A stretch of DNA of 64,000 nucleotides from Uncultured Candidatus Berkiella sp. (GTDB taxonomy: Bacteria > Pseudomonadota > Gammaproteobacteria > Berkiellales > Berkiellaceae). Position 1 is the stretch's first letter; each line of letters begins with the position of its first letter. Below the pieces are notes generated by a model. It saw nothing but the letters and a program-made list of their open reading frames with translations. It had not been told where the DNA came from and searched no databases. The position numbers and the translations under genes are program-made. Below, one piece after another: positions 9,095 through 38,853 of this stretch. Location: positions 9,645 to 73,644 of the forward strand of contig CAZSGE010000010.1 in NCBI GenBank assembly GCA_964606325.1. The letters run 5' to 3'.

Positions 9095-10588
9095 TTGAAT
9101 ATCTTCTCATTTTCAAAAAAAGCTATCCTTAGCTATGTCATATTTATCTGCATCATTCAGTTAACTTTTTTAGGCGTGCTCTATTTTTATTGGAATATAT
9201 TTTCACTCCTTTTACTTCTCTTAAGCTCTTTATTAATTATCACGCTACTCTCTTTCGGTGCCGTGTTACTTTTTAATAAACTGACACTTCAATTTTCAGA
9301 ACAAAGCCAATACGATCCCATCACTCAGTTGCCCAATCGCCCTTATTTTTTTAATTACCTTAATCGGGTCTTAGAAAACAATGAGTCTAAAGCATTTGGA
9401 GTGATGACCATTGGTATAGATAGATTCCCTCAAATCAATCAAGCGCTGGGTTATCAAGTTGGGGATAGATTGTTAAACCATGTGGCGCAAAGATTAAAAT
9501 CTCAACTTAGCGAAGCACAGATAATTGCCCGCCTTGCGAGTAATGTTTTTATCGTCCTAATACCAGGATTAAATCAAAAAAATTATAGCGAAGTGGTTGA
9601 TAAAGTAATGGAAGTATTTTCAACCCCCTTCAGTGTCTATACCGTACAAATTGATTTGGATGTTTTAGTAGGCATGAGCTTCTATCCAATCGATGGTACT
9701 CAAGCGGCCCCGCTCATCCAAAAGGCTGATTTGGCTTTATATGCGGCAAGATTCTCTGTTGAGCGATGTGAATTTTATCAAGAAAACAAAGATCCTCATC
9801 ATCACAATAAAATTTCGCTAATGAGCGAACTGCGTGAGGGTTTAGGGCAAAATGAATTTCAGGTATTTTATCAACCAAAAGTTAACCTAACTTCTAACAA
9901 AGTAACCCAGGTAGAAACGTTAATTCGCTGGTTTCATCCAACCAGAGGCGAAATGACACCGGATCAATTTATCCCATTAGCTGAAGAAACGGGCCATCTT
10001 AAGAAATTAACGCTATGGTTGCTTGAAAAAAGTATTGTTCAAGCAAGCGCCTGGCAAACACAATCCAACTCGCTTGGGGTGTCGATTAATTTATCGGTTA
10101 AAGATTTACTCAATAAACAATTGCCTGAATATATCTCAGGCCTCATCAAAGACCATCACTTGAATCCTGAACTACTGACACTTGAGATCACGGAAAGCGC
10201 TTTTATGAGAGAACCTGAAAGTGCCATTTTGGCAACCAAAAAACTTATACAATTAGGCGTTAATTTATCCATAGATGATTATGGCACCGGCTACTCTTCT
10301 TTGAACTATTTAAAAAAATTACCTGTCAATGAAATAAAGTTAGATAAATCTTTCACCCAAGATATCCTGCAACATGAGCGTGTTGCCCACATTGTGCAAT
10401 CAACCATCCGCTTAGGGCACAGTCTAGGCATGCAAGTCGTTGCCGAAGGCGTCAACGATGAGGACACCCTTAATATGTTGAAGCAATTTGGTTGCGATAT
10501 GGGGCAAGGATTTTACTTTAGCCAGCCACTGCCCTTAGATGACTTCTCAAAATGGTTAACCACATCAAGCTTTGGTATTCATTCTTAA
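9095..10588 (+). CDS. Membrane-anchored GGDEF(degenerate)-EAL c-di-GMP phosphodiesterase
   Basis: Two N-terminal TM helices, YDPITQLPNR, GGDEF site reads ASNVF; EAL domain has YQPK, ETLIRW, LEITES, DDYGTGYSSL and VAEGV. TTG start. Confidence 0.88.
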   Translation: MNIFSFSKKAILSYVIFICIIQLTFLGVLYFYWNIFSLLLLLLSSLLIITLLSFGAVLLFNKLTLQFSEQSQYDPITQLPNRPYFFNYLNRVLENNESKAFGVMTIGIDRFPQINQALGYQVGDRLLNHVAQRLKSQLSEAQIIARLASNVFIVLIPGLNQKNYSEVVDKVMEVFSTPFSVYTVQIDLDVLVGMSFYPIDGTQAAPLIQKADLALYAARFSVERCEFYQENKDPHHHNKISLMSELREGLGQNEFQVFYQPKVNLTSNKVTQVETLIRWFHPTRGEMTPDQFIPLAEETGHLKKLTLWLLEKSIVQASAWQTQSNSLGVSINLSVKDLLNKQLPEYISGLIKDHHLNPELLTLEITESAFMREPESAILATKKLIQLGVNLSIDDYGTGYSSLNYLKKLPVNEIKLDKSFTQDILQHERVAHIVQSTIRLGHSLGMQVVAEGVNDEDTLNMLKQFGCDMGQGFYFSQPLPLDDFSKWLTTSSFGIHS

Positions 10589-10695
10589 CAGCATTCTTAA
10601 CAGGACATCCATCTTATAGTTTATTATAAAACTCACTTTCAGATGAGTGTCCTAACACTAACCACAACACCACTTTACTATGGGTGTCCCAACAC

Positions 10696-11718
10696 TCACT
10701 CATAATTCACGGCATTCCACACAGCTTGTTTTGCCAACTCGCCTGCTTTTAAGCCTAGGTAAAAACGTTTGGCATTTAAGTCCGCTTCAATCTGCTCACC
10801 TGGTGCATAGATATCACTCACTTCACTGCCTGTACTCACCGTATAAAGCACATCCCCATCTAGTATGGTGGCATAGGGATAAATCACATGCGATAGCGCA
10901 TGATGTACCTGACGGCCGATTTGCTGTAGATGCCGTGGGCTAAGCTTTTCATTAATCACCACCAACGTTAAGGTTGTGTTGCCAGCGCCTGCTGGGTTAA
11001 AAGCTTTTTTAGGTTCTTGTAACAGTGTATGGCTTTTTTCAAGTAGTTCTTTTTTTGAAAGCGTTGAGCCATGCACCACTTCGCCTTTATCATTTAAAAT
11101 AACACCCACGGCATTCACCACCGTGAACACAGCAATTTTAGTTTTACCAATTTGTCCAAACGCAGCGCCTTGCCCTGCGCTTGTAAAGCTATCACCAAAA
11201 AGTTTGCCATTGGTGGCAGAAACACCTGCCCCATGGCGACCTTGCGGGAATACGCCGCTCTTTAATTTTGCAAAAGCTTCTTGCCCTAATGCTTTATCAG
11301 GGTAATGTCTATTTGAACGTGGCGTAAAATCAAAAATCACCGCGCCTGAAATCAGCGGCATTTTGGAAAAATGGGTTTTATTTTCTTTGGCGTATAAACT
11401 CGATACGGCACCTGCAATCGCTTCCATGCCTAAAATACCACCCCCAGCAAAGGCAACACCATCTAAATAGGCTTCACCTTGATGCATTTTTTCTTGGGTG
11501 AAAAATGTGCCAACTGAACCACCGCGAATATCGACTGCCGCCTGTGCCCCATTTGGGAAATAAAATAACGTGATCCCTGTAGGCCCTTTGGGGTTTTCTG
11601 CTACACCGACTTGCACATCAGGAAAATCAAAATGAAGAGTTTTATCTTGCGATGGATTGTTTTTTGCGAAAGAAAGTGTGGAAAAAAGACATAAAATTAA
11701 AAGTGTTACTGCTTTCAT
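10696..11718 (-). CDS. Signal-peptide-bearing P1/S58 (DmpA/NylC-like) Ntn hydrolase
   Basis: FDFPDVQVG, GPTGITL, VDIRGGSVG, YPDKALG, FPQGRHGAG, GQGAAF, GNTT autocleavage motif, LDGDVLY. ATG 11718 follows GAGG and starts MKAVTLLILCLFSTLSFA; the track ORF starts at 11799. Confidence 0.85.
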   Translation of the reverse strand: MKAVTLLILCLFSTLSFAKNNPSQDKTLHFDFPDVQVGVAENPKGPTGITLFYFPNGAQAAVDIRGGSVGTFFTQEKMHQGEAYLDGVAFAGGGILGMEAIAGAVSSLYAKENKTHFSKMPLISGAVIFDFTPRSNRHYPDKALGQEAFAKLKSGVFPQGRHGAGVSATNGKLFGDSFTSAGQGAAFGQIGKTKIAVFTVVNAVGVILNDKGEVVHGSTLSKKELLEKSHTLLQEPKKAFNPAGAGNTTLTLVVINEKLSPRHLQQIGRQVHHALSHVIYPYATILDGDVLYTVSTGSEVSDIYAPGEQIEADLNAKRFYLGLKAGELAKQAVWNAVNYE

Positions 11719-11771
11719 TATTACCTCATGGTGGACACGTCTTTCAACGTTGCCCCCGATAATTTTAAGAT

Positions 11772-11804
11772 GGTGGACACGCCTGTTGGCTTTGTCCACC
11801 CTAC
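11772..11804 (-). repeat. GTAG-type REP-like palindrome, copy 1
   Basis: Minus strand GTAG-GGTGGAC-aaagccaacaggcgt-GTCCACC; intergenic. Confidence 0.7.
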
Positions 11805-11837
11805 ATTTTTTATTTCTCTCTCAGACGGGTAAGCGCT

Positions 11838-13127
11838 TTAAGCGCTAGCCTTAGCCTCTTCAATGGCTGATTGAAGCGTTTCTTCCTTGTTTGCTTCGTA
11901 TTGGTTAATTGTCGGGCGTAATTGTATAAGTAAAATTAATCCTGGGATAGCAAACACGATGGTCCATAAGAAAAATTCTTCCCAACCCACAGCTTTCACC
12001 ATATACCCTGCTGCTGGCCCAACAAAAACACGCCCCACAGCAGCAAGCGCACTAATGAGCGCAAACTGTGTTGCGGTAAATCGCGGGTTACATAAACTCA
12101 TCACTAAGGCCATAAATGCAGCAGTGCCTAAACCACCACCAAAATTTTCTAAGCAGACAGTTAATACCAGCATGCCGGTATTTGGGCCCATCATGGCCAG
12201 TATATAGAACAAGAAATTAGTAAGCGCTTGGATAATCCCAAAAATAAGTAAGGAGCGAAAAAGGCCTAATCTAACCATGAGCACGCCGCCCACAAACACA
12301 CCAAATAACGTGGAGATTAAGCCACCGGTTTTGTTGATGTAGCCGACTTCTTTTAAAGTAAAGCCAACACCTTTCAGTAAAAAAGCGGTGGTTAATGTAC
12401 TTGCAAAAGCATCGCCTAATTTATATAGCACGACAAAAGCTAATAGCATGATTGCCGACTTGCGGCTTAAAAATTCTTTAAAGGGTTCAATGCAAGCTTT
12501 AAGGAAGGAAGGCGTGACATCACGGTGCGCCAACGGCTCTTTAGCCCAAAGTGTAGCGAAAACGCCAATCCCCATTAATGCTGCCATTAAAAAGTAGGTA
12601 AAAGAAAAACCTGCGTAATCGGCAATGATAAGCGTTAACCCACCACTCACTAGCATGGCAATGCGATAGCCACTCACAGCCATGGCTGTGCCCATTCCCC
12701 TTTCTTCGGGTTTAAGCAATTCGGTACGATAAGCATCAATCGCAATGTCTTGAGTAGCAGACAAAAAAGCTAAGCACAGTGCTAAAAAGGCTAGTTGATA
12801 CGGCGTGCTGGTAGGATTTAACAGCGCCATTCCACAGAGAACCCCGATTAAACCTATTTGAGTGGTGATCATCCAACCGCGTCTTAAGCCCAGAAATGGC
12901 AGACGGTACTTATCCATCATGGGTGCCCAAATAAATTTATACACATAGGGTTGCCCAACCAGGGCTAAAAATCCTATGGTAACAACATCAACGTTATCCA
13001 TGGCGTACCATGCTTGCAGTGCGGTACCACTTAAACCCAACGGAAGACCTGACACAAAACCAAGTAAAAGGATTAACATCATGCGTTTTTGCATTAACAA
13101 ACTTAGCCAGGTGGGTTTTTTATTCAT
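11838..13127 (-). CDS. ampG: AmpG family muropeptide MFS transporter
   Basis: LLGFVSGLPL, YVYKFIWAPMMD, GLRRGWM, SATQDIAIDAYR, LYKLGDA, TATQFAL. Confidence 0.92.
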   Translation of the reverse strand: MNKKPTWLSLLMQKRMMLILLLGFVSGLPLGLSGTALQAWYAMDNVDVVTIGFLALVGQPYVYKFIWAPMMDKYRLPFLGLRRGWMITTQIGLIGVLCGMALLNPTSTPYQLAFLALCLAFLSATQDIAIDAYRTELLKPEERGMGTAMAVSGYRIAMLVSGGLTLIIADYAGFSFTYFLMAALMGIGVFATLWAKEPLAHRDVTPSFLKACIEPFKEFLSRKSAIMLLAFVVLYKLGDAFASTLTTAFLLKGVGFTLKEVGYINKTGGLISTLFGVFVGGVLMVRLGLFRSLLIFGIIQALTNFLFYILAMMGPNTGMLVLTVCLENFGGGLGTAAFMALVMSLCNPRFTATQFALISALAAVGRVFVGPAAGYMVKAVGWEEFFLWTIVFAIPGLILLIQLRPTINQYEANKEETLQSAIEEAKASA

Positions 13128-13937
13128 ATGTTGAATAACTTACTTAGGTTGAATAAATTAACAAGCTTAATGCTTATTCTACTCACACAACCCATGATCT
13201 CCAAAGCTGATAACGCGAATTATCGTTTTACAGAGCAAGTTGTTTGTGACTTTCGTCACTTTTATAGCATGAGCTCCCTTTCCCAACGAGCAATAGGTTA
13301 TGGTGTGGGTACAATAGAAGCCAATACCGATATGGATCCGCAATTTCGCCTTTATTGGCAACAAAAGATCCGCAATGATTTTAGCGATAAAATCTCAACG
13401 ATAATTAACGACTATAGCAAGATAGCAACCTACCCAATTTCAGTTCCTGCTTATATGGCCACGCTTTGGTTAAGTAATAAAGCATTTTCATTAGAACCTA
13501 ATAGCCAGTTGGGATGGTGGGCAAATCATTCTTTGCGAACCGTTATTGTGGGTGTCCCAGAACAAGCGCTATTCACACACTTGCTAGGCAGTGGTCGACC
13601 ACCGTCCGGACAGCATGCATGGCATTTGTTTGATCAGCATCGTGCAGTCAGTGGCCACGCTTTCTTTGGCGCCATCCCCTTAATAAATGCGGCCAAACAA
13701 ATTGAAGCTCCTTGGTTAAAAACATCCATATATGTACTATCAACGTTACCAGGACTTGCCAGAATTAACAGCGATAAACATTATCTATCACAAGTCTGGT
13801 TAGGTTGGTGGCTTGCCTATAGCACAACCCAAGCAGTTTGGCATGCAGATAAAGTTAGCAAAAAACCACAGAACGTATCATTACAAATGCTTCCACTCGA
13901 AAATGGAATTTATTTAGGATTGGCTAAAAAACTTTGA
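13128..13937 (+). CDS. PAP2 family phosphatase
   Basis: PAP2-like motifs GSGRP, VSGH and ARINSDKHYLSQV. Start uncertain. Confidence 0.75.
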   Translation: MLNNLLRLNKLTSLMLILLTQPMISKADNANYRFTEQVVCDFRHFYSMSSLSQRAIGYGVGTIEANTDMDPQFRLYWQQKIRNDFSDKISTIINDYSKIATYPISVPAYMATLWLSNKAFSLEPNSQLGWWANHSLRTVIVGVPEQALFTHLLGSGRPPSGQHAWHLFDQHRAVSGHAFFGAIPLINAAKQIEAPWLKTSIYVLSTLPGLARINSDKHYLSQVWLGWWLAYSTTQAVWHADKVSKKPQNVSLQMLPLENGIYLGLAKKL

Positions 13938-28611: not shown

Positions 28612-30042
28612 TTAACGCTTTGCAACACCTTGATAAATAAACAACAACTGATCAACAACTTGCTTAGCACTTTCTAAACCTGAAAGATAAGCTGCTTGTA
28701 AATTTGAAGGAGAACGATGCGTATGTTCGCCTGCAAAAATTAATCGACCTAATGGTGTTGCAATAACAGAATTATCCTCTAAAGAACTACCCGCTGGGTG
28801 ATAGCAATACGAACCTAATGAAAAGGGATCTTTATCCCAATGTGTTACCCATGATTTTTTAAGTGGTCTGAATGTATTGGTATAGATATCTTTAAATAAA
28901 TTGACGCAGTGATTTATCAGATACTTATCTTCTGGTAAATCTTTATTAGAATTCGCGTAAATTGATGCAACTAAAACTGGCTTTTTTTCAGTTGTGAAAT
29001 GCTGTAAATTAACAACATCAAGCCAGGCTTCAAGGGTAGGATCAAATAACACCACAAAATGAGAATAATCATCCCAAAATGTCTCTTCAAACTGTAGAAT
29101 CACCTTATTATGATTTGCACAGCTCAATGCGTTAATGGCTTTTGTTTTAGATAGAGGTAATGGCGGTTCAAAAATAACATTCCCTTTTTGTAAGACACCC
29201 AATGGTAGCGTACAGATAGCCGCATCAGCTCGATGAGCACTACCCGTGTGAGTGTGAACGATAATTTCCTCGCCAGTATGATCAATTTTGAGAACTTCAT
29301 TTGAAAGAAAGACTTGCAGCAAACCCGTTTTTTTAGCTTCTGAATACATACCCTCGGTTACTTTGTCATAACCATTCATGACTAAAAAATTACTTTCACT
29401 TTCCTTTTTATTTGTTCCCATTTTATACGAAAATAACTTTTCTTTTTTTAATTCTTTGATACTAATCATTTTTGCCAAAGATTCTAAATCGCCAGACTGA
29501 ATAGCTTTTTGTTTCAATAGTTGGGTATCAATATATTGGAGATCAGCAACGGTAAAACGATCTTTATCATCTGAAAGTCGCGTCAATGTTAACGCTTTTA
29601 TCTGCTCTTTGTATTCATCTACTAAATCCGTGAGCTGTGTTTTATCTATCTCATGCCCTTGCATGTCGAAAACAGCCCAATTACTTCTGACATAAGGCTT
29701 AACATCAAGATGATAGTGCTCTGATATATTAAAAAGCGGATTATTCTTAACGCCATGAACAAATTGCGCTCCTAATTCAATAAAGGAGCCATCTTCTATA
29801 TGCAAACTATGAATTCTGCCACCAACGCGATCTCTTGCTTCAACCAAAATAACATTAAGCCCATGGTGGGTTAATTCCTTTGCGGCAGTAATCCCTGATA
29901 AACCTGCGCCGATAATGAGTATAGTTGGCTTATCTTTACTAGGGTGTGCCTTGATAGCGGGATGCTGTTTACTTTTTAAATGTAAGTAAAAGTGACACAG
30001 ATCTTTTACCGTATTGTTAGATATCACTGGTATCTCTGTCAT
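28612..30042 (-). CDS. Flavin-dependent amine oxidase (polyamine oxidase/LSD1-like family)
   Basis: IIGAGLSG dinucleotide fold, EARDRVGGRI, ELGAQFVHG, TLPLGVL, HNKVILQFEETFWD, WDKDPFSLGSY, FAGEHT. Confidence 0.9.
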   Translation of the reverse strand: MTEIPVISNNTVKDLCHFYLHLKSKQHPAIKAHPSKDKPTILIIGAGLSGITAAKELTHHGLNVILVEARDRVGGRIHSLHIEDGSFIELGAQFVHGVKNNPLFNISEHYHLDVKPYVRSNWAVFDMQGHEIDKTQLTDLVDEYKEQIKALTLTRLSDDKDRFTVADLQYIDTQLLKQKAIQSGDLESLAKMISIKELKKEKLFSYKMGTNKKESESNFLVMNGYDKVTEGMYSEAKKTGLLQVFLSNEVLKIDHTGEEIIVHTHTGSAHRADAAICTLPLGVLQKGNVIFEPPLPLSKTKAINALSCANHNKVILQFEETFWDDYSHFVVLFDPTLEAWLDVVNLQHFTTEKKPVLVASIYANSNKDLPEDKYLINHCVNLFKDIYTNTFRPLKKSWVTHWDKDPFSLGSYCYHPAGSSLEDNSVIATPLGRLIFAGEHTHRSPSNLQAAYLSGLESAKQVVDQLLFIYQGVAKR

Positions 30043-36915: not shown

Positions 36916-37503
36916 ATGGAGATGTCATCTGTCACAAGCTATGTATCAATAGGCATAGGTACCTTCTTATTGATATATTTCGTTGTCATTTTCAACAATC
37001 TGGTTGCGCTCAAAAACAACGCTAAAAAAGCTTGGGCCAACATCGATGTCTTGTTGAAGCAACGTCACGATGAGTTACCCAAACTCATTGAAACCTGTAA
37101 ACAATATATGCAATATGAAAGTCAAACCCTTGAGAAAATCACCCTAGCCAGGCAAAAAGCTGTGCAGGCTCGTCAATCGGGTGATATCCAGGCGATGGGA
37201 CAAGCAGAATCCTATTTAAAAGGCATGTTGGGTAATTTGTTTGCCCTGGCAGAAAATTATCCCGATCTTAAAACCAATGAAACTTTTACTCATTTACAAA
37301 AACGCATTTCAGGCTTGGAAAACAGTATCGCCGATAGGCGCGAACTTTATAATGAAAGTGTGACTTTAAACAATATCAGAATTGAACAGATCCCTGACAT
37401 TATCATCGCCAAACTATTTGGCTTCAAACACCTGGAAACATTAGAATTTGCAAGTGATGAGCTGCGCGACATTGATGTGGGCGCTCAGTTCAAGCAAACT
37501 TAA
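36916..37503 (+). CDS. lemA: LemA family protein
   Basis: N-terminal TM, FNNLVALKN, WANIDVLLKQRHD, AENYPDLK, ENSIADRRELYNESV. Confidence 0.93.
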   Translation: MEMSSVTSYVSIGIGTFLLIYFVVIFNNLVALKNNAKKAWANIDVLLKQRHDELPKLIETCKQYMQYESQTLEKITLARQKAVQARQSGDIQAMGQAESYLKGMLGNLFALAENYPDLKTNETFTHLQKRISGLENSIADRRELYNESVTLNNIRIEQIPDIIIAKLFGFKHLETLEFASDELRDIDVGAQFKQT

Positions 37504-38288
37504 TGGCACTATCTATGGTACAGTTACAAGCGTATTTACAACAATACGGTTTAAATTCTCATTCAATTAAACAAATCCCAGAACTAGCTTTTTTCATCAT
37601 TCTTAGCTTTTTCAGTTTATTTGCGTTGTATTTCTTTTTCCAATGGTACAAAAACTTCAAAAAAGCCAGGAATATAGAAGATACCCCAACGGCAAAAATC
37701 CGCTCTGCCGCTCAAGGATATGTTGAAATCGAAGGCAAGCAAAAATACCTCAATAAGCTGCCAACGACAGCTCCACTTTCTCAATTACCATGTACTTGGT
37801 ATCGATATACGATTGACCATGGCGTGAAAAATAAATGGTACCGTGTTGAACAGGGGGAATCTACTCAGTCCTTTATGCTAGTAGATGACACAGGCGAAAG
37901 CATTGTCGATCCTGTTGGCGCTCAAGTAACCTGTGCATTAAAAGATAGTTGGTATGGCTTTAAAAAATACCCCAAAGGTAAACCCACTAATATAATTTGG
38001 CGAATTATAGGCACTTTTGGAAATTATCGATATATTGAGTGGCGAATGCATGAAGACCACTACCTTTATGTAGCAGGGAATTTTTCAACACAAAATGATC
38101 CCACTACTCACGAGAGTTATCATTTTATTAGCAAAAAAGGGCTCAATAAAAGTTCACCTTTTCTTATTTCTTCGGTTGATCAAAAGAAACTCATTTTCCA
38201 ATATAAGCTAGCTGCTTTTGCTTTCTTAATTGGTTATAGCATTCTTTTGTTTATTATTGGCTGGATGCTGGTTGGTAGATTTTTTTAA
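37503..38288 (+). CDS. GIDE-domain-like membrane protein, translationally coupled to lemA
   Basis: TAATG overlap; IEDTPTAKIRSAAQGYVEIEG, CTWYRY, FMLVDDTG; TM helices at both ends. Confidence 0.7.
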   Translation: MALSMVQLQAYLQQYGLNSHSIKQIPELAFFIILSFFSLFALYFFFQWYKNFKKARNIEDTPTAKIRSAAQGYVEIEGKQKYLNKLPTTAPLSQLPCTWYRYTIDHGVKNKWYRVEQGESTQSFMLVDDTGESIVDPVGAQVTCALKDSWYGFKKYPKGKPTNIIWRIIGTFGNYRYIEWRMHEDHYLYVAGNFSTQNDPTTHESYHFISKKGLNKSSPFLISSVDQKKLIFQYKLAAFAFLIGYSILLFIIGWMLVGRFF

Positions 38289-38689
38289 TGGGCAGATGTT
38301 ATGGAAAAATTGGGTCCCATAGAAACGAGCTGTTCTAACTCTTTTAATCTTTTAGCATAATATGAGCTTTGCTGAAATTTATGCTTTTCGTGTTCAATCA
38401 CAACCATTAATAATGAATAATTGCTTCGCGGATCTCTTAAAAATTTATCCAAATGGGTGTAAACCCTTACCCAACTACGACAACATTTTTGATAATGAGC
38501 GCGGCCAAGGGATAAAAAGAACCAATTACGGCCAAAGTTATATAGATAATGATTTATTTCATCAATAATGTCGTGTAACTGTTTGTCACACACATGAACA
38601 TCAAGAATATCGGCTGTGAAACCGATTGTCGTGCTACTCACTGCCATAACATAACCACTTCGGGGTTTATGGTTATATAAAAAAGGCAT
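38285..38689 (-). CDS. Hypothetical protein
   Basis: 134-aa ORF; stop overlaps the stop of the convergent gene (TTAA). Confidence 0.55.
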   Translation of the reverse strand: MPFLYNHKPRSGYVMAVSSTTIGFTADILDVHVCDKQLHDIIDEINHYLYNFGRNWFFLSLGRAHYQKCCRSWVRVYTHLDKFLRDPRSNYSLLMVVIEHEKHKFQQSSYYAKRLKELEQLVSMGPNFSITSAH

Positions 38690-38853
38690 AACACTCTTAC
38701 TTCCATGTAACTACATTCAAATGAATGTTTGCCTACTCCTATTTAGCTTATCACCCTTTGGGTAGTATGTTAACTATCTTTATATTGTATTTTGCCCCAC
38801 TTAAATATTGTGGGTACTATAGAAGCAACTACACGAATAAAGGGAGACCCAGC

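Follow-up and report, generated by a model that had tools for sequence, protein, structure and literature searches.

A predicted Sec-exported Ntn amide hydrolase closely related to the nylon hydrolase Nyl12 in an uncultured Candidatus Berkiella bacterium

Introduction

A stretch of 64,000 nucleotides from an uncultured Candidatus Berkiella sp. (GenBank assembly GCA_964606325.1, contig CAZSGE010000010.1, positions 9,645 to 73,644 of the forward strand; called the window throughout, with positions counted from its first letter) carries on its minus strand, at 10696..11718, a gene that raises the question of what kind of amide hydrolase is encoded there and what it might be for. A preliminary description, drawn from the letters alone, had proposed a secreted N-terminal nucleophile (Ntn) hydrolase resembling NylC, the 6-aminohexanoate-oligomer endohydrolase, and had named grouping with the aminopeptidases DmpA and BapA, away from NylC, as the result that would speak against this. 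Here we combine sequence, profile, fold and tree comparisons and conclude, with considerable confidence, that the gene encodes the precursor, exported by the general secretory (Sec) pathway, of a NylC-type Ntn amide hydrolase of peptidase family P1/S58 that is a close relative of the characterised enzyme Nyl12. By sequence, the relation is closer than had been proposed, in that the nearest relative is Nyl12 and not NylC; the gene adds a member to an already characterised enzyme group and is not a new kind of enzyme.

Results

The hydrolase gene and its nearest relatives

The coding sequence, taken from the list of open reading frames (ORFs) and its translation, is intact and specifies 340 residues from an ATG start to a stop codon at 10696-10698; the frame is also open back to an in-frame GTG at 11799, which would give 367 residues. 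A full-length match to the Pfam model PF03576 (Peptidase_S58; residues 31-337, E=1e-15, 58.5 bits against a cut-off of 23.9) assigns the product on its sequence to peptidase family P1/S58, and a scan of the protein against NCBIfam returned no matching model. When the protein was compared with the chains of the PDB using phmmer, the top match was Nyl12 (9z0a/9z0b, 'nylon6 and nylon66 hydrolase'; E=2.4e-146, residues 23-339), with further matches to NylC (~1e-55), Nyl50 (1.5e-29), Nyl10 (4e-13) and ThnT (~1e-12). Pairwise identity was 72.8% over 316 residues for Nyl12 and 42.2% over 294 residues for NylC. A profile of the 38 closest proteins (the clade profile), searched against the same chains, gave E-values of 2e-174 for Nyl12, 8e-69 for NylC, 2e-39 for Nyl50, 6.5e-24 for Nyl10 and 1e-20 for ThnT. 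The similarity to Nyl12 and NylC is far beyond chance.

The relatives of the protein fall into a well-separated group. A database search returned 2733 homologs, 37 of them at least 50% identical and the next at most 47%, and the bit scores fell from 340 to 262 after entry P0037 of the homolog list. In a neighbour-joining tree (midpoint-rooted, no bootstrap) the window protein lay within the clade that contains Nyl12, and NylC lay in the other large group. On these sequence comparisons the window protein belongs with Nyl12 in a group that leaves out NylC and the other homologs. Since the two loci are also syntenic (see below), we regard it as a close relative and probably an ortholog of Nyl12.

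Nyl12 comes from a panel of 95 NylC homologs and cleaves both polyamide 6 (PA6, nylon-6) and polyamide 66 (PA66, nylon-6,6), with linear trimers and tetramers as the main products from PA6 (PMC11601465). No accession for Nyl12 was found in the supplement of that paper (PMC11601465); its PDB chain is 100% identical to OJV88492.1 ('Gammaproteobacteria bacterium 39-13'), which is encoded on the contig that we refer to as locus L006.

An AlphaFold2 model of the window protein (mean predicted local distance difference test score, pLDDT, 85.9; predicted template-modelling score, pTM, 0.86) gave a consistent picture. The top 24 Foldseek matches were all NylC chains (template-modelling score, TM, 0.75-0.82; E ~1e-32; 37% structural identity), and compared by enzyme the TM values were 0.79-0.82 for NylC, 0.74-0.83 for Nyl50, 0.67 for ThnT and ~0.60 for BapA and DmpA, the last two at 14-16% identity. 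The model thus predicts a NylC fold, and a structural likeness to Nyl12 itself is to be expected from the sequence. The pLDDT dropped to 70-74 over residues 231-250, in agreement with the disordered tail of the alpha chain in crystals of Nyl12 (PMC13015463). By sequence, profile, fold and tree alike, the protein falls on the side of NylC and away from DmpA and BapA, as the preliminary description had anticipated.

Active-site and tunnel residues

In crystals, Nyl12 is a tetramer of self-cleaved alpha and beta chains with Thr233 as nucleophile; its key active-site trio is Phe113/Asn186/Thr233, Lys156 is conserved, and a mobile active-site loop carries Phe101 (PMC13015463). The sequence blocks that had been read as collinear with NylC are present in the window protein in the order described: LHFDFPDVQVG (residues 28-38), GPTG (45-48), VDIRGGSVG (62-70), YPDKALG (139-145), FPQGRHGAG (157-165), GQGAAF (182-187), AGNTTL (245-250) and LDGDVLY (286-292). 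The assignment of the processing site to Asn247 (codon 10978-10980) and Thr248 (10975-10977) was borne out, and the sequence points to an Asn/Thr self-cleavage site with a Thr nucleophile, aligned with N232/T233 of Nyl12 and N266/T267 of NylC. The predicted alpha subunit would comprise residues 19-247, ending in Asn247 (10978..11664, minus strand, as for all features of this gene), and the predicted beta subunit residues 248-340, starting at the nucleophile Thr248 (10699..10977). Predicted masses are 34.3 kDa for the proenzyme, 24.0 kDa for alpha and 10.3 kDa for beta.

The other catalytic positions singled out earlier are also kept. Lys172 (in TNGK; 11203..11205) corresponds to Lys156 of Nyl12 and Lys189 of NylC, Asn202 (in VVNA; 11113..11115), the oxyanion-hole residue, to Asn186 and Asn219, and Asp287-Gly288-Asp289 (10852..10860) to Asp272-Gly-Asp and Asp306-Gly-Asp308. 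The catalytic residues are invariant across the 38 clade members (38/38 for the Lys, the Asn and the Asp-Gly-Asp motif, and for both T248 and the adjacent T249), with N247 present in 37/38. Tyr146 of NylC, its proposed catalytic Tyr, lies in the motif IYDF and had been described as replaced by Phe; in the pairwise alignment its position is indeed occupied by Phe129 (11332..11334) in IFDF, and the clade has Phe here in 35 members and Tyr in three. Phe is likewise found here in Nyl12 (Phe113), which is active, so Tyr is evidently not required there for nylon hydrolysis and its replacement is no argument against activity.

The pairwise alignment with Nyl12 covered the substrate tunnel as well as the active site, and all the residues compared were identical in the window protein except one. 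Nyl12 Q57, Y66, F101 and M104 match window Q75, Y84, F117 and M120; F113, K156 and N186 match F129, K172 and N202; N232/T233 and D272-G-D match N247/T248 and D287-G-D289; and I295 and L299 match I310 and L314. The exception is Arg159, which in Nyl12 is proposed to 'hook' the carboxylate of the product and so aid its release (PMC13015463); in the window protein Gly175 (11194..11196) takes its place. This correspondence is firm because the alignment is ungapped between the invariant residues K172 and G182. Gly is found at position 175 in 31/38 clade members, and Arg is restricted to the Nyl12 cluster.

The N-terminus and export

The first 18 residues (MKAVTLLILCLFSTLSFA; 11665..11718) have the features of a Sec signal peptide with a predicted cut after S-F-A. 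The N-terminus, MKAVTLLILCLFSTLSFA followed by KNN, has a single Lys, a hydrophobic core (best nine-residue Kyte-Doolittle mean 3.17) and the small-x-small sequence S-F-A at its end. Some 30 of the 38 clade members had comparable signal-like N-termini, 26-28 residues ahead of the LxFDF block, and the members in which they were absent resemble truncated gene calls. We infer from these features and their conservation in the clade that the hydrolase is probably exported. A lipoprotein signal centred on Cys10 was considered and rejected, as Leu at -1 is unfit for a lipobox and the Cys is not conserved. Ahead of the ATG at 11718, at a distance of 5 nucleotides, lies a Shine-Dalgarno-like GAGG (11724..11727), and the arrangement GAGGTA[A/G]TAATG is kept in the related locus L001.

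A similar signal appears to be encoded by the native Nyl12 gene. The deposited protein (OJV88492.1, 328 residues) begins at an internal Met, and an in-frame upstream ATG adds 21 residues that resemble a signal peptide; a 349-residue call of the same gene (MBN9289136.1; the full-length call P0121; L006 7968-9002) begins MASSIQSIIASFCICIWGSLA. Judged from these sequences, Nyl12 has been studied in what would be a near mature form, by the accident of a truncated gene call, and no signal peptide is mentioned in its publications (PMC11601465, PMC13015463).

Distribution and gene neighbourhood

Among species-representative genomes, relatives at least 55% identical occurred only in metagenome-assembled genomes labelled Candidatus Berkiella sp., Coxiellaceae or unclassified Gammaproteobacteria, and the next relatives, at most 45% identical, came from Bacillota, Chloroflexota, Gaiellaceae, Planctomycetota and others. 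The DNA itself occurs in sludge, wastewater, biofilm and indoor metagenomes.

The gene order in the window is TamB-like, RpoS, MarR, AcnA, FumC, GGDEF-EAL, hydrolase, ampG, PAP2-like and FKBP/Mip-like, and the Nyl12 source locus L006 shares with it the order fumC, GGDEF-EAL, nyl (the hydrolase gene), ampG, PAP2-like and FKBP. Directly upstream of the hydrolase gene, ampG (11838..13127, minus strand) encodes an AmpG-family muropeptide transporter of the major facilitator superfamily (TIGR00901, 469.7 bits against a cut-off of 350). Where ampG is directly upstream on the same strand, the gap between the two genes is 119 nucleotides in the window, 58 in L001, 122 in L002, 25 in L003, 25 in L005 and 227 in L006; in L008 and L009 ampG lies 1-5 kb from nyl. 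The adjacency is limited to the closest, broadly syntenic genomes, and no AmpG-like gene was near nyl in six clade members, in which the contexts are unrelated (L004, L007 and the loci of P0006, P0010, P0015 and P0017). Co-transcription of ampG and nyl is possible; when 10400-13400 was scanned for promoters and terminators, the number of sites did not exceed that in shuffled sequence, and none lay in the gap between the two genes. A look for RNA runs that could report on expression and on read-through from ampG yielded none.

Among the ORFs of at least 220 residues between 545 and 56994, scanned with NCBIfam or Pfam, none was of the nylA type (amidase) or nylB type (beta-lactamase fold) and none belonged to a mobile element, and the same ORFs gave no antibiotic biosynthetic cluster around the hydrolase gene. 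The gene is chromosomal and stands alone, without nylA or nylB nearby, and its GC content (0.437) is equal to that of ampG and fumC.

Several other features of the region were recorded. The gap between ampG and the hydrolase gene (11719-11837, minus strand) contains ACGTGTCCACCAT twice, 42 nucleotides apart (11728-11740 and 11770-11782). Immediately upstream, an inverted partial copy, GGTGGACA, forms an 8-bp stem with the distal copy. At up to two mismatches the motif has four matches in the window against 0.7 expected, both of the good ones lying in this gap, and the proximal copy, which abuts the GAGG ribosome-binding site, is kept in L001. The motif could serve as a binding site for a regulator or form an RNA hairpin. 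The corresponding gap of the Nyl12 source locus (L006 7741-7967) has three tandem copies of a unit of about 35 nucleotides with a short inverted repeat (CTCCCGCAGGCGGGAGAG-like) in it; the window lacks this unit. On the other side of the gene, between the convergent ends of the hydrolase and GGDEF-EAL genes, AGTGTT[A/G]GGACAC occurs twice on the minus strand (10647-10659 and 10684-10696), 37 nucleotides apart, against 0.08 expected; each copy is a short imperfect palindrome and the first touches the stop codon. The pair could be a terminator that acts in both directions or a small repeat element.

Farther from the hydrolase gene, a run of eukaryote-like, effector-type genes extends over 37503-55201. 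It includes genes for a GIDE E3-ligase-like protein (37503-38288), a PKMT-type protein methyltransferase (38725-40443), a PTP-like phytase/phosphatase (40626-41585), a RhoGAP (42660-43838), a Sec7 Arf-GEF (47283-48050) and two eukaryotic-type protein kinases (51868-53100 and 53231-55201), and fits an intracellular, amoeba-associated, Legionellales-like lifestyle. A giant ORF of 2727 residues (18357-26540, minus strand) has one cadherin domain together with RTX calcium-binding repeats, and its product is probably a secreted adhesin or RTX-type protein. A gene for a flavin-containing amine oxidase lies at 28612-30042 (minus strand), about 17 kb from the hydrolase gene.

Discussion

Proposed mechanism and likely activity

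The comparisons establish the sequence with its residues, a predicted fold, membership of the clade and synteny; by analogy with Nyl12 and NylC, export, self-cleavage, oligomeric state and activity would follow the course set out here. By homology, the 18-residue signal peptide would be removed during export to the periplasm, and a proenzyme of about 34 kDa would form a tetramer and cut itself between Asn247 and Thr248, aided by Asp287 and Asp289, to give alpha and beta chains of 24 and 10 kDa. The freed Thr248 would then act as the nucleophile, with Lys172, Asn202 and Phe129 completing the active site and oxyanion hole in a tunnel at the subunit interface, and the enzyme would cut internal amide bonds in flexible, unbranched aliphatic chains. 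Given the 73% identity to Nyl12 and the conserved active site, hydrolysis of nylon-6 and nylon-6,6 oligomers and polymer surfaces, as by Nyl12, seems likely. Product release or the product spectrum may differ from that of Nyl12, as the proposed Arg159 'hook' is replaced by Gly175.

Several points weigh against this interpretation. Export, self-cleavage and activity of the window protein are argued wholly from homology, 27% of its residues, including the one at the Arg159 position, differ from Nyl12, and the public NCBI/Logan calls use the upstream GTG, which would bury the predicted signal peptide within a 367-residue protein. About 40% of the 95-enzyme panel was active and activity did not track phylogeny; the panel enzymes are, however, mutually only 30-50% identical (PMC11601465).

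Alternative interpretations

The protein might instead be a generic aminopeptidase of the DmpA/BapA type, which would trim N-terminal D- or beta-amino acids from the end of its substrate and would not be an endo-acting amidase like NylC. The Pfam family PF03576 is common to DmpA, BapA and the window protein, many of the homologs are labelled 'L-aminopeptidase/D-esterase-like protein' by JGI, and BapA and DmpA do appear among the Foldseek matches. Yet no DmpA or BapA chain in the PDB was reached either by the single sequence (at E<=1) or by the 38-sequence clade profile (at E<=10), compared with 8e-69 for NylC; the structural matches to BapA and DmpA stand at 14-16% identity and TM ~0.6 as against 37% and ~0.8 for NylC; and the protein, like NylC and Nyl12, has Thr at the nucleophile position, where DmpA and BapA, which are exo-acting, have Ser. 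A precursor structure of BapA S250A (3n5i), found among the Foldseek matches, is consistent with that Ser nucleophile. We therefore consider an aminopeptidase of this type very improbable. A different doubt concerns the start of the protein. If translation began at the GTG (11797..11799, minus strand), the hydrophobic stretch would be internal to a 367-residue product, and the enzyme would be cytoplasmic or membrane-anchored and neither exported nor processed. The frame is open to this codon, the long form is found in public annotation (NCBI/Logan start at GTG 11799, and ENA/Logan give 340 residues on other contigs), and tblastn with the long form extends in frame into the upstream regions of L001 and L002. 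Against this, the 27-residue extension has no match in the clade proteins, which begin with the signal-like segment, and the in-frame similarity in L001 coincides with the conserved DNA motif ACGTGTCCACCAT-GAGG and is not a protein feature. Moreover, GAGG stands 5 nucleotides before the ATG and the GTG is without a well-spaced Shine-Dalgarno sequence, the stop codon of ampG is only 25 nucleotides from the ATG of nyl in L003 and L005, and the 340-residue product is given by three independent gene calls, on three metagenome contigs. The 367-residue form, whose extension is missing from the relatives and coincides in part with a repeated DNA motif, is thus probably a mis-call, and a non-exported enzyme made from it seems to us unlikely.

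Two further proposals accept a NylC-type amidase and differ over its purpose. In one, the enzyme is a periplasmic partner of the AmpG permease that cuts peptidoglycan-derived peptides (for example stem peptides, at gamma-D-Glu or meso-diaminopimelic acid amides) before or during cell-wall recycling. This would fit the predicted periplasmic location and the position of ampG, which in the window, L001, L002, L003, L005 and L006 is the next gene upstream on the same strand; the 25-nucleotide gap in L003 and L005 suggests co-transcription, and in L008 and L009 ampG is 1-5 kb distant. However, synteny extends over the whole region in those genomes (fumC, GGDEF-EAL, PAP2-like, FKBP), so that the adjacency may reflect shared ancestry, and the unrelated contexts of L004, L007 and the loci of P0006, P0010, P0015 and P0017 have no AmpG-like gene nearby. 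To our knowledge there is no biochemical link between P1-family enzymes and muropeptides. As the adjacency is confined to the closest, broadly syntenic genomes, we have downgraded a coupling to AmpG and give it a slim chance. In the other, the gene belongs to a dedicated system for the catabolism of nylon oligomers, selected by man-made nylon waste as was NylC, which is carried on plasmid pOAD2. The organism is indeed present in metagenomes of sludge, wastewater, biofilm and indoor origin, settings that contain debris of synthetic fibres, but there are no NylA- or NylB-type or mobile-element genes among the window ORFs scanned, the GC content equals that of neighbouring housekeeping genes, and the gene is conserved, diverging to 50% identity, across a whole bacterial lineage, which implies that it is far older than nylon. 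The authors of the panel study likewise concluded that nylon is not the native substrate of the NylC-homolog family (PMC11601465). Such a dedicated system can be given almost no credence.

Native role and significance

We return to an exported, Nyl12-type amidase as the preferred reading. For such an enzyme nylon is most likely not the native substrate and nylon hydrolysis a promiscuous activity, given the lack of nylA- and nylB-type genes among the scanned ORFs and a GC content equal to that of ampG and fumC; the native substrate should be something met in the periplasm or outside the cell. A bolder suggestion is that the exported Nyl12 clade has a specific native role at the envelope of amoeba-associated, Berkiella-like cells or at their interface with the host, for instance by cutting peptidoglycan- or host-derived non-alpha amides in the periplasm and feeding the AmpG encoded upstream. 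We offer this as speculation that is at present rather improbable; if true, a NylC-type enzyme would for the first time have a native function assigned to it.

That Nyl12, 73% identical and from a syntenic locus, has already been expressed, assayed on PA6 and PA66 and crystallised both strengthens the functional inference for the window protein and removes most of its novelty. Nyl12 is reported to be the wild-type nylon hydrolase with the highest product titre and has been named as an engineering starting point (PMC13015463). The window protein is a natural variant of it, 27% diverged, with the active site kept and without the proposed 'hook'; Gly175 makes it suited to testing the Arg 'hook' model, and it adds sequence diversity for engineering. 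The predicted export signals of the native Nyl12-group proteins, set beside a published Nyl12 that starts near the mature N-terminus, and the confinement of the clade to Berkiella-like bacteria of intracellular type together narrow the search for a native substrate to outside the cytoplasm.

Comparison with known enzymes

DmpA (1B65) and BapA (3N2W and others) share with the window protein the Pfam family and the general alpha-beta-beta-alpha fold, and differ from it in their Ser nucleophile and in the low identity and TM values given above. ThnT (3S3U, 3TM1), the thienamycin pantetheine hydrolase, is, like the window protein's relatives NylC and Nyl12, a self-cleaving P1 Ntn enzyme that uses Thr as nucleophile, and its target is a non-alpha amide, but it is only 23-25% identical (TM 0.67, profile E ~1e-20). 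The nylon-6,6-selective enzymes Nyl50 (9CXR/9DYS) and Nyl10 (9YYS) share family, fold, Thr nucleophile and a tetramer of cleaved chains; they are nevertheless distant (profile E=2e-39 and 6.5e-24, with 27-28% structural identity for Nyl50), their tunnel residues are different and smaller, and Nyl10 is without the conserved Lys (PMC13015463).

NylC of Arthrobacter sp. KI72 (PDB 3AXG, 5XYG, 7YU0 and others) is like the window protein in its fold and at 42% identity, and its Asn/Thr self-cleavage site and the equivalents of Lys189, Asn219 and Asp306-Gly-Asp308 are kept. It differs in having Tyr146 where the window protein has Phe129, and in an N-terminal extension of about 45 non-aligning residues, which is not known to be a signal peptide, where the window protein has a predicted export signal. 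The gene for NylC lies on a plasmid together with nylA and nylB, whereas the window gene is chromosomal and alone, and NylC gives mainly diads where the enzymes of the Nyl12 group give longer oligomers (PMC11601465).

Nyl12 itself agrees with the window protein in sequence (72.8% identity), tree clade, catalytic and tunnel residues and gene neighbourhood, with ampG upstream and GGDEF-EAL and fumC downstream, and both native genes appear to encode a signal-like N-terminus. The two differ in 27% of their residues, in a 2-residue deletion in the loop before F117, in another small indel before the cleavage site, and in the presence of Gly175 in the place of Arg159.

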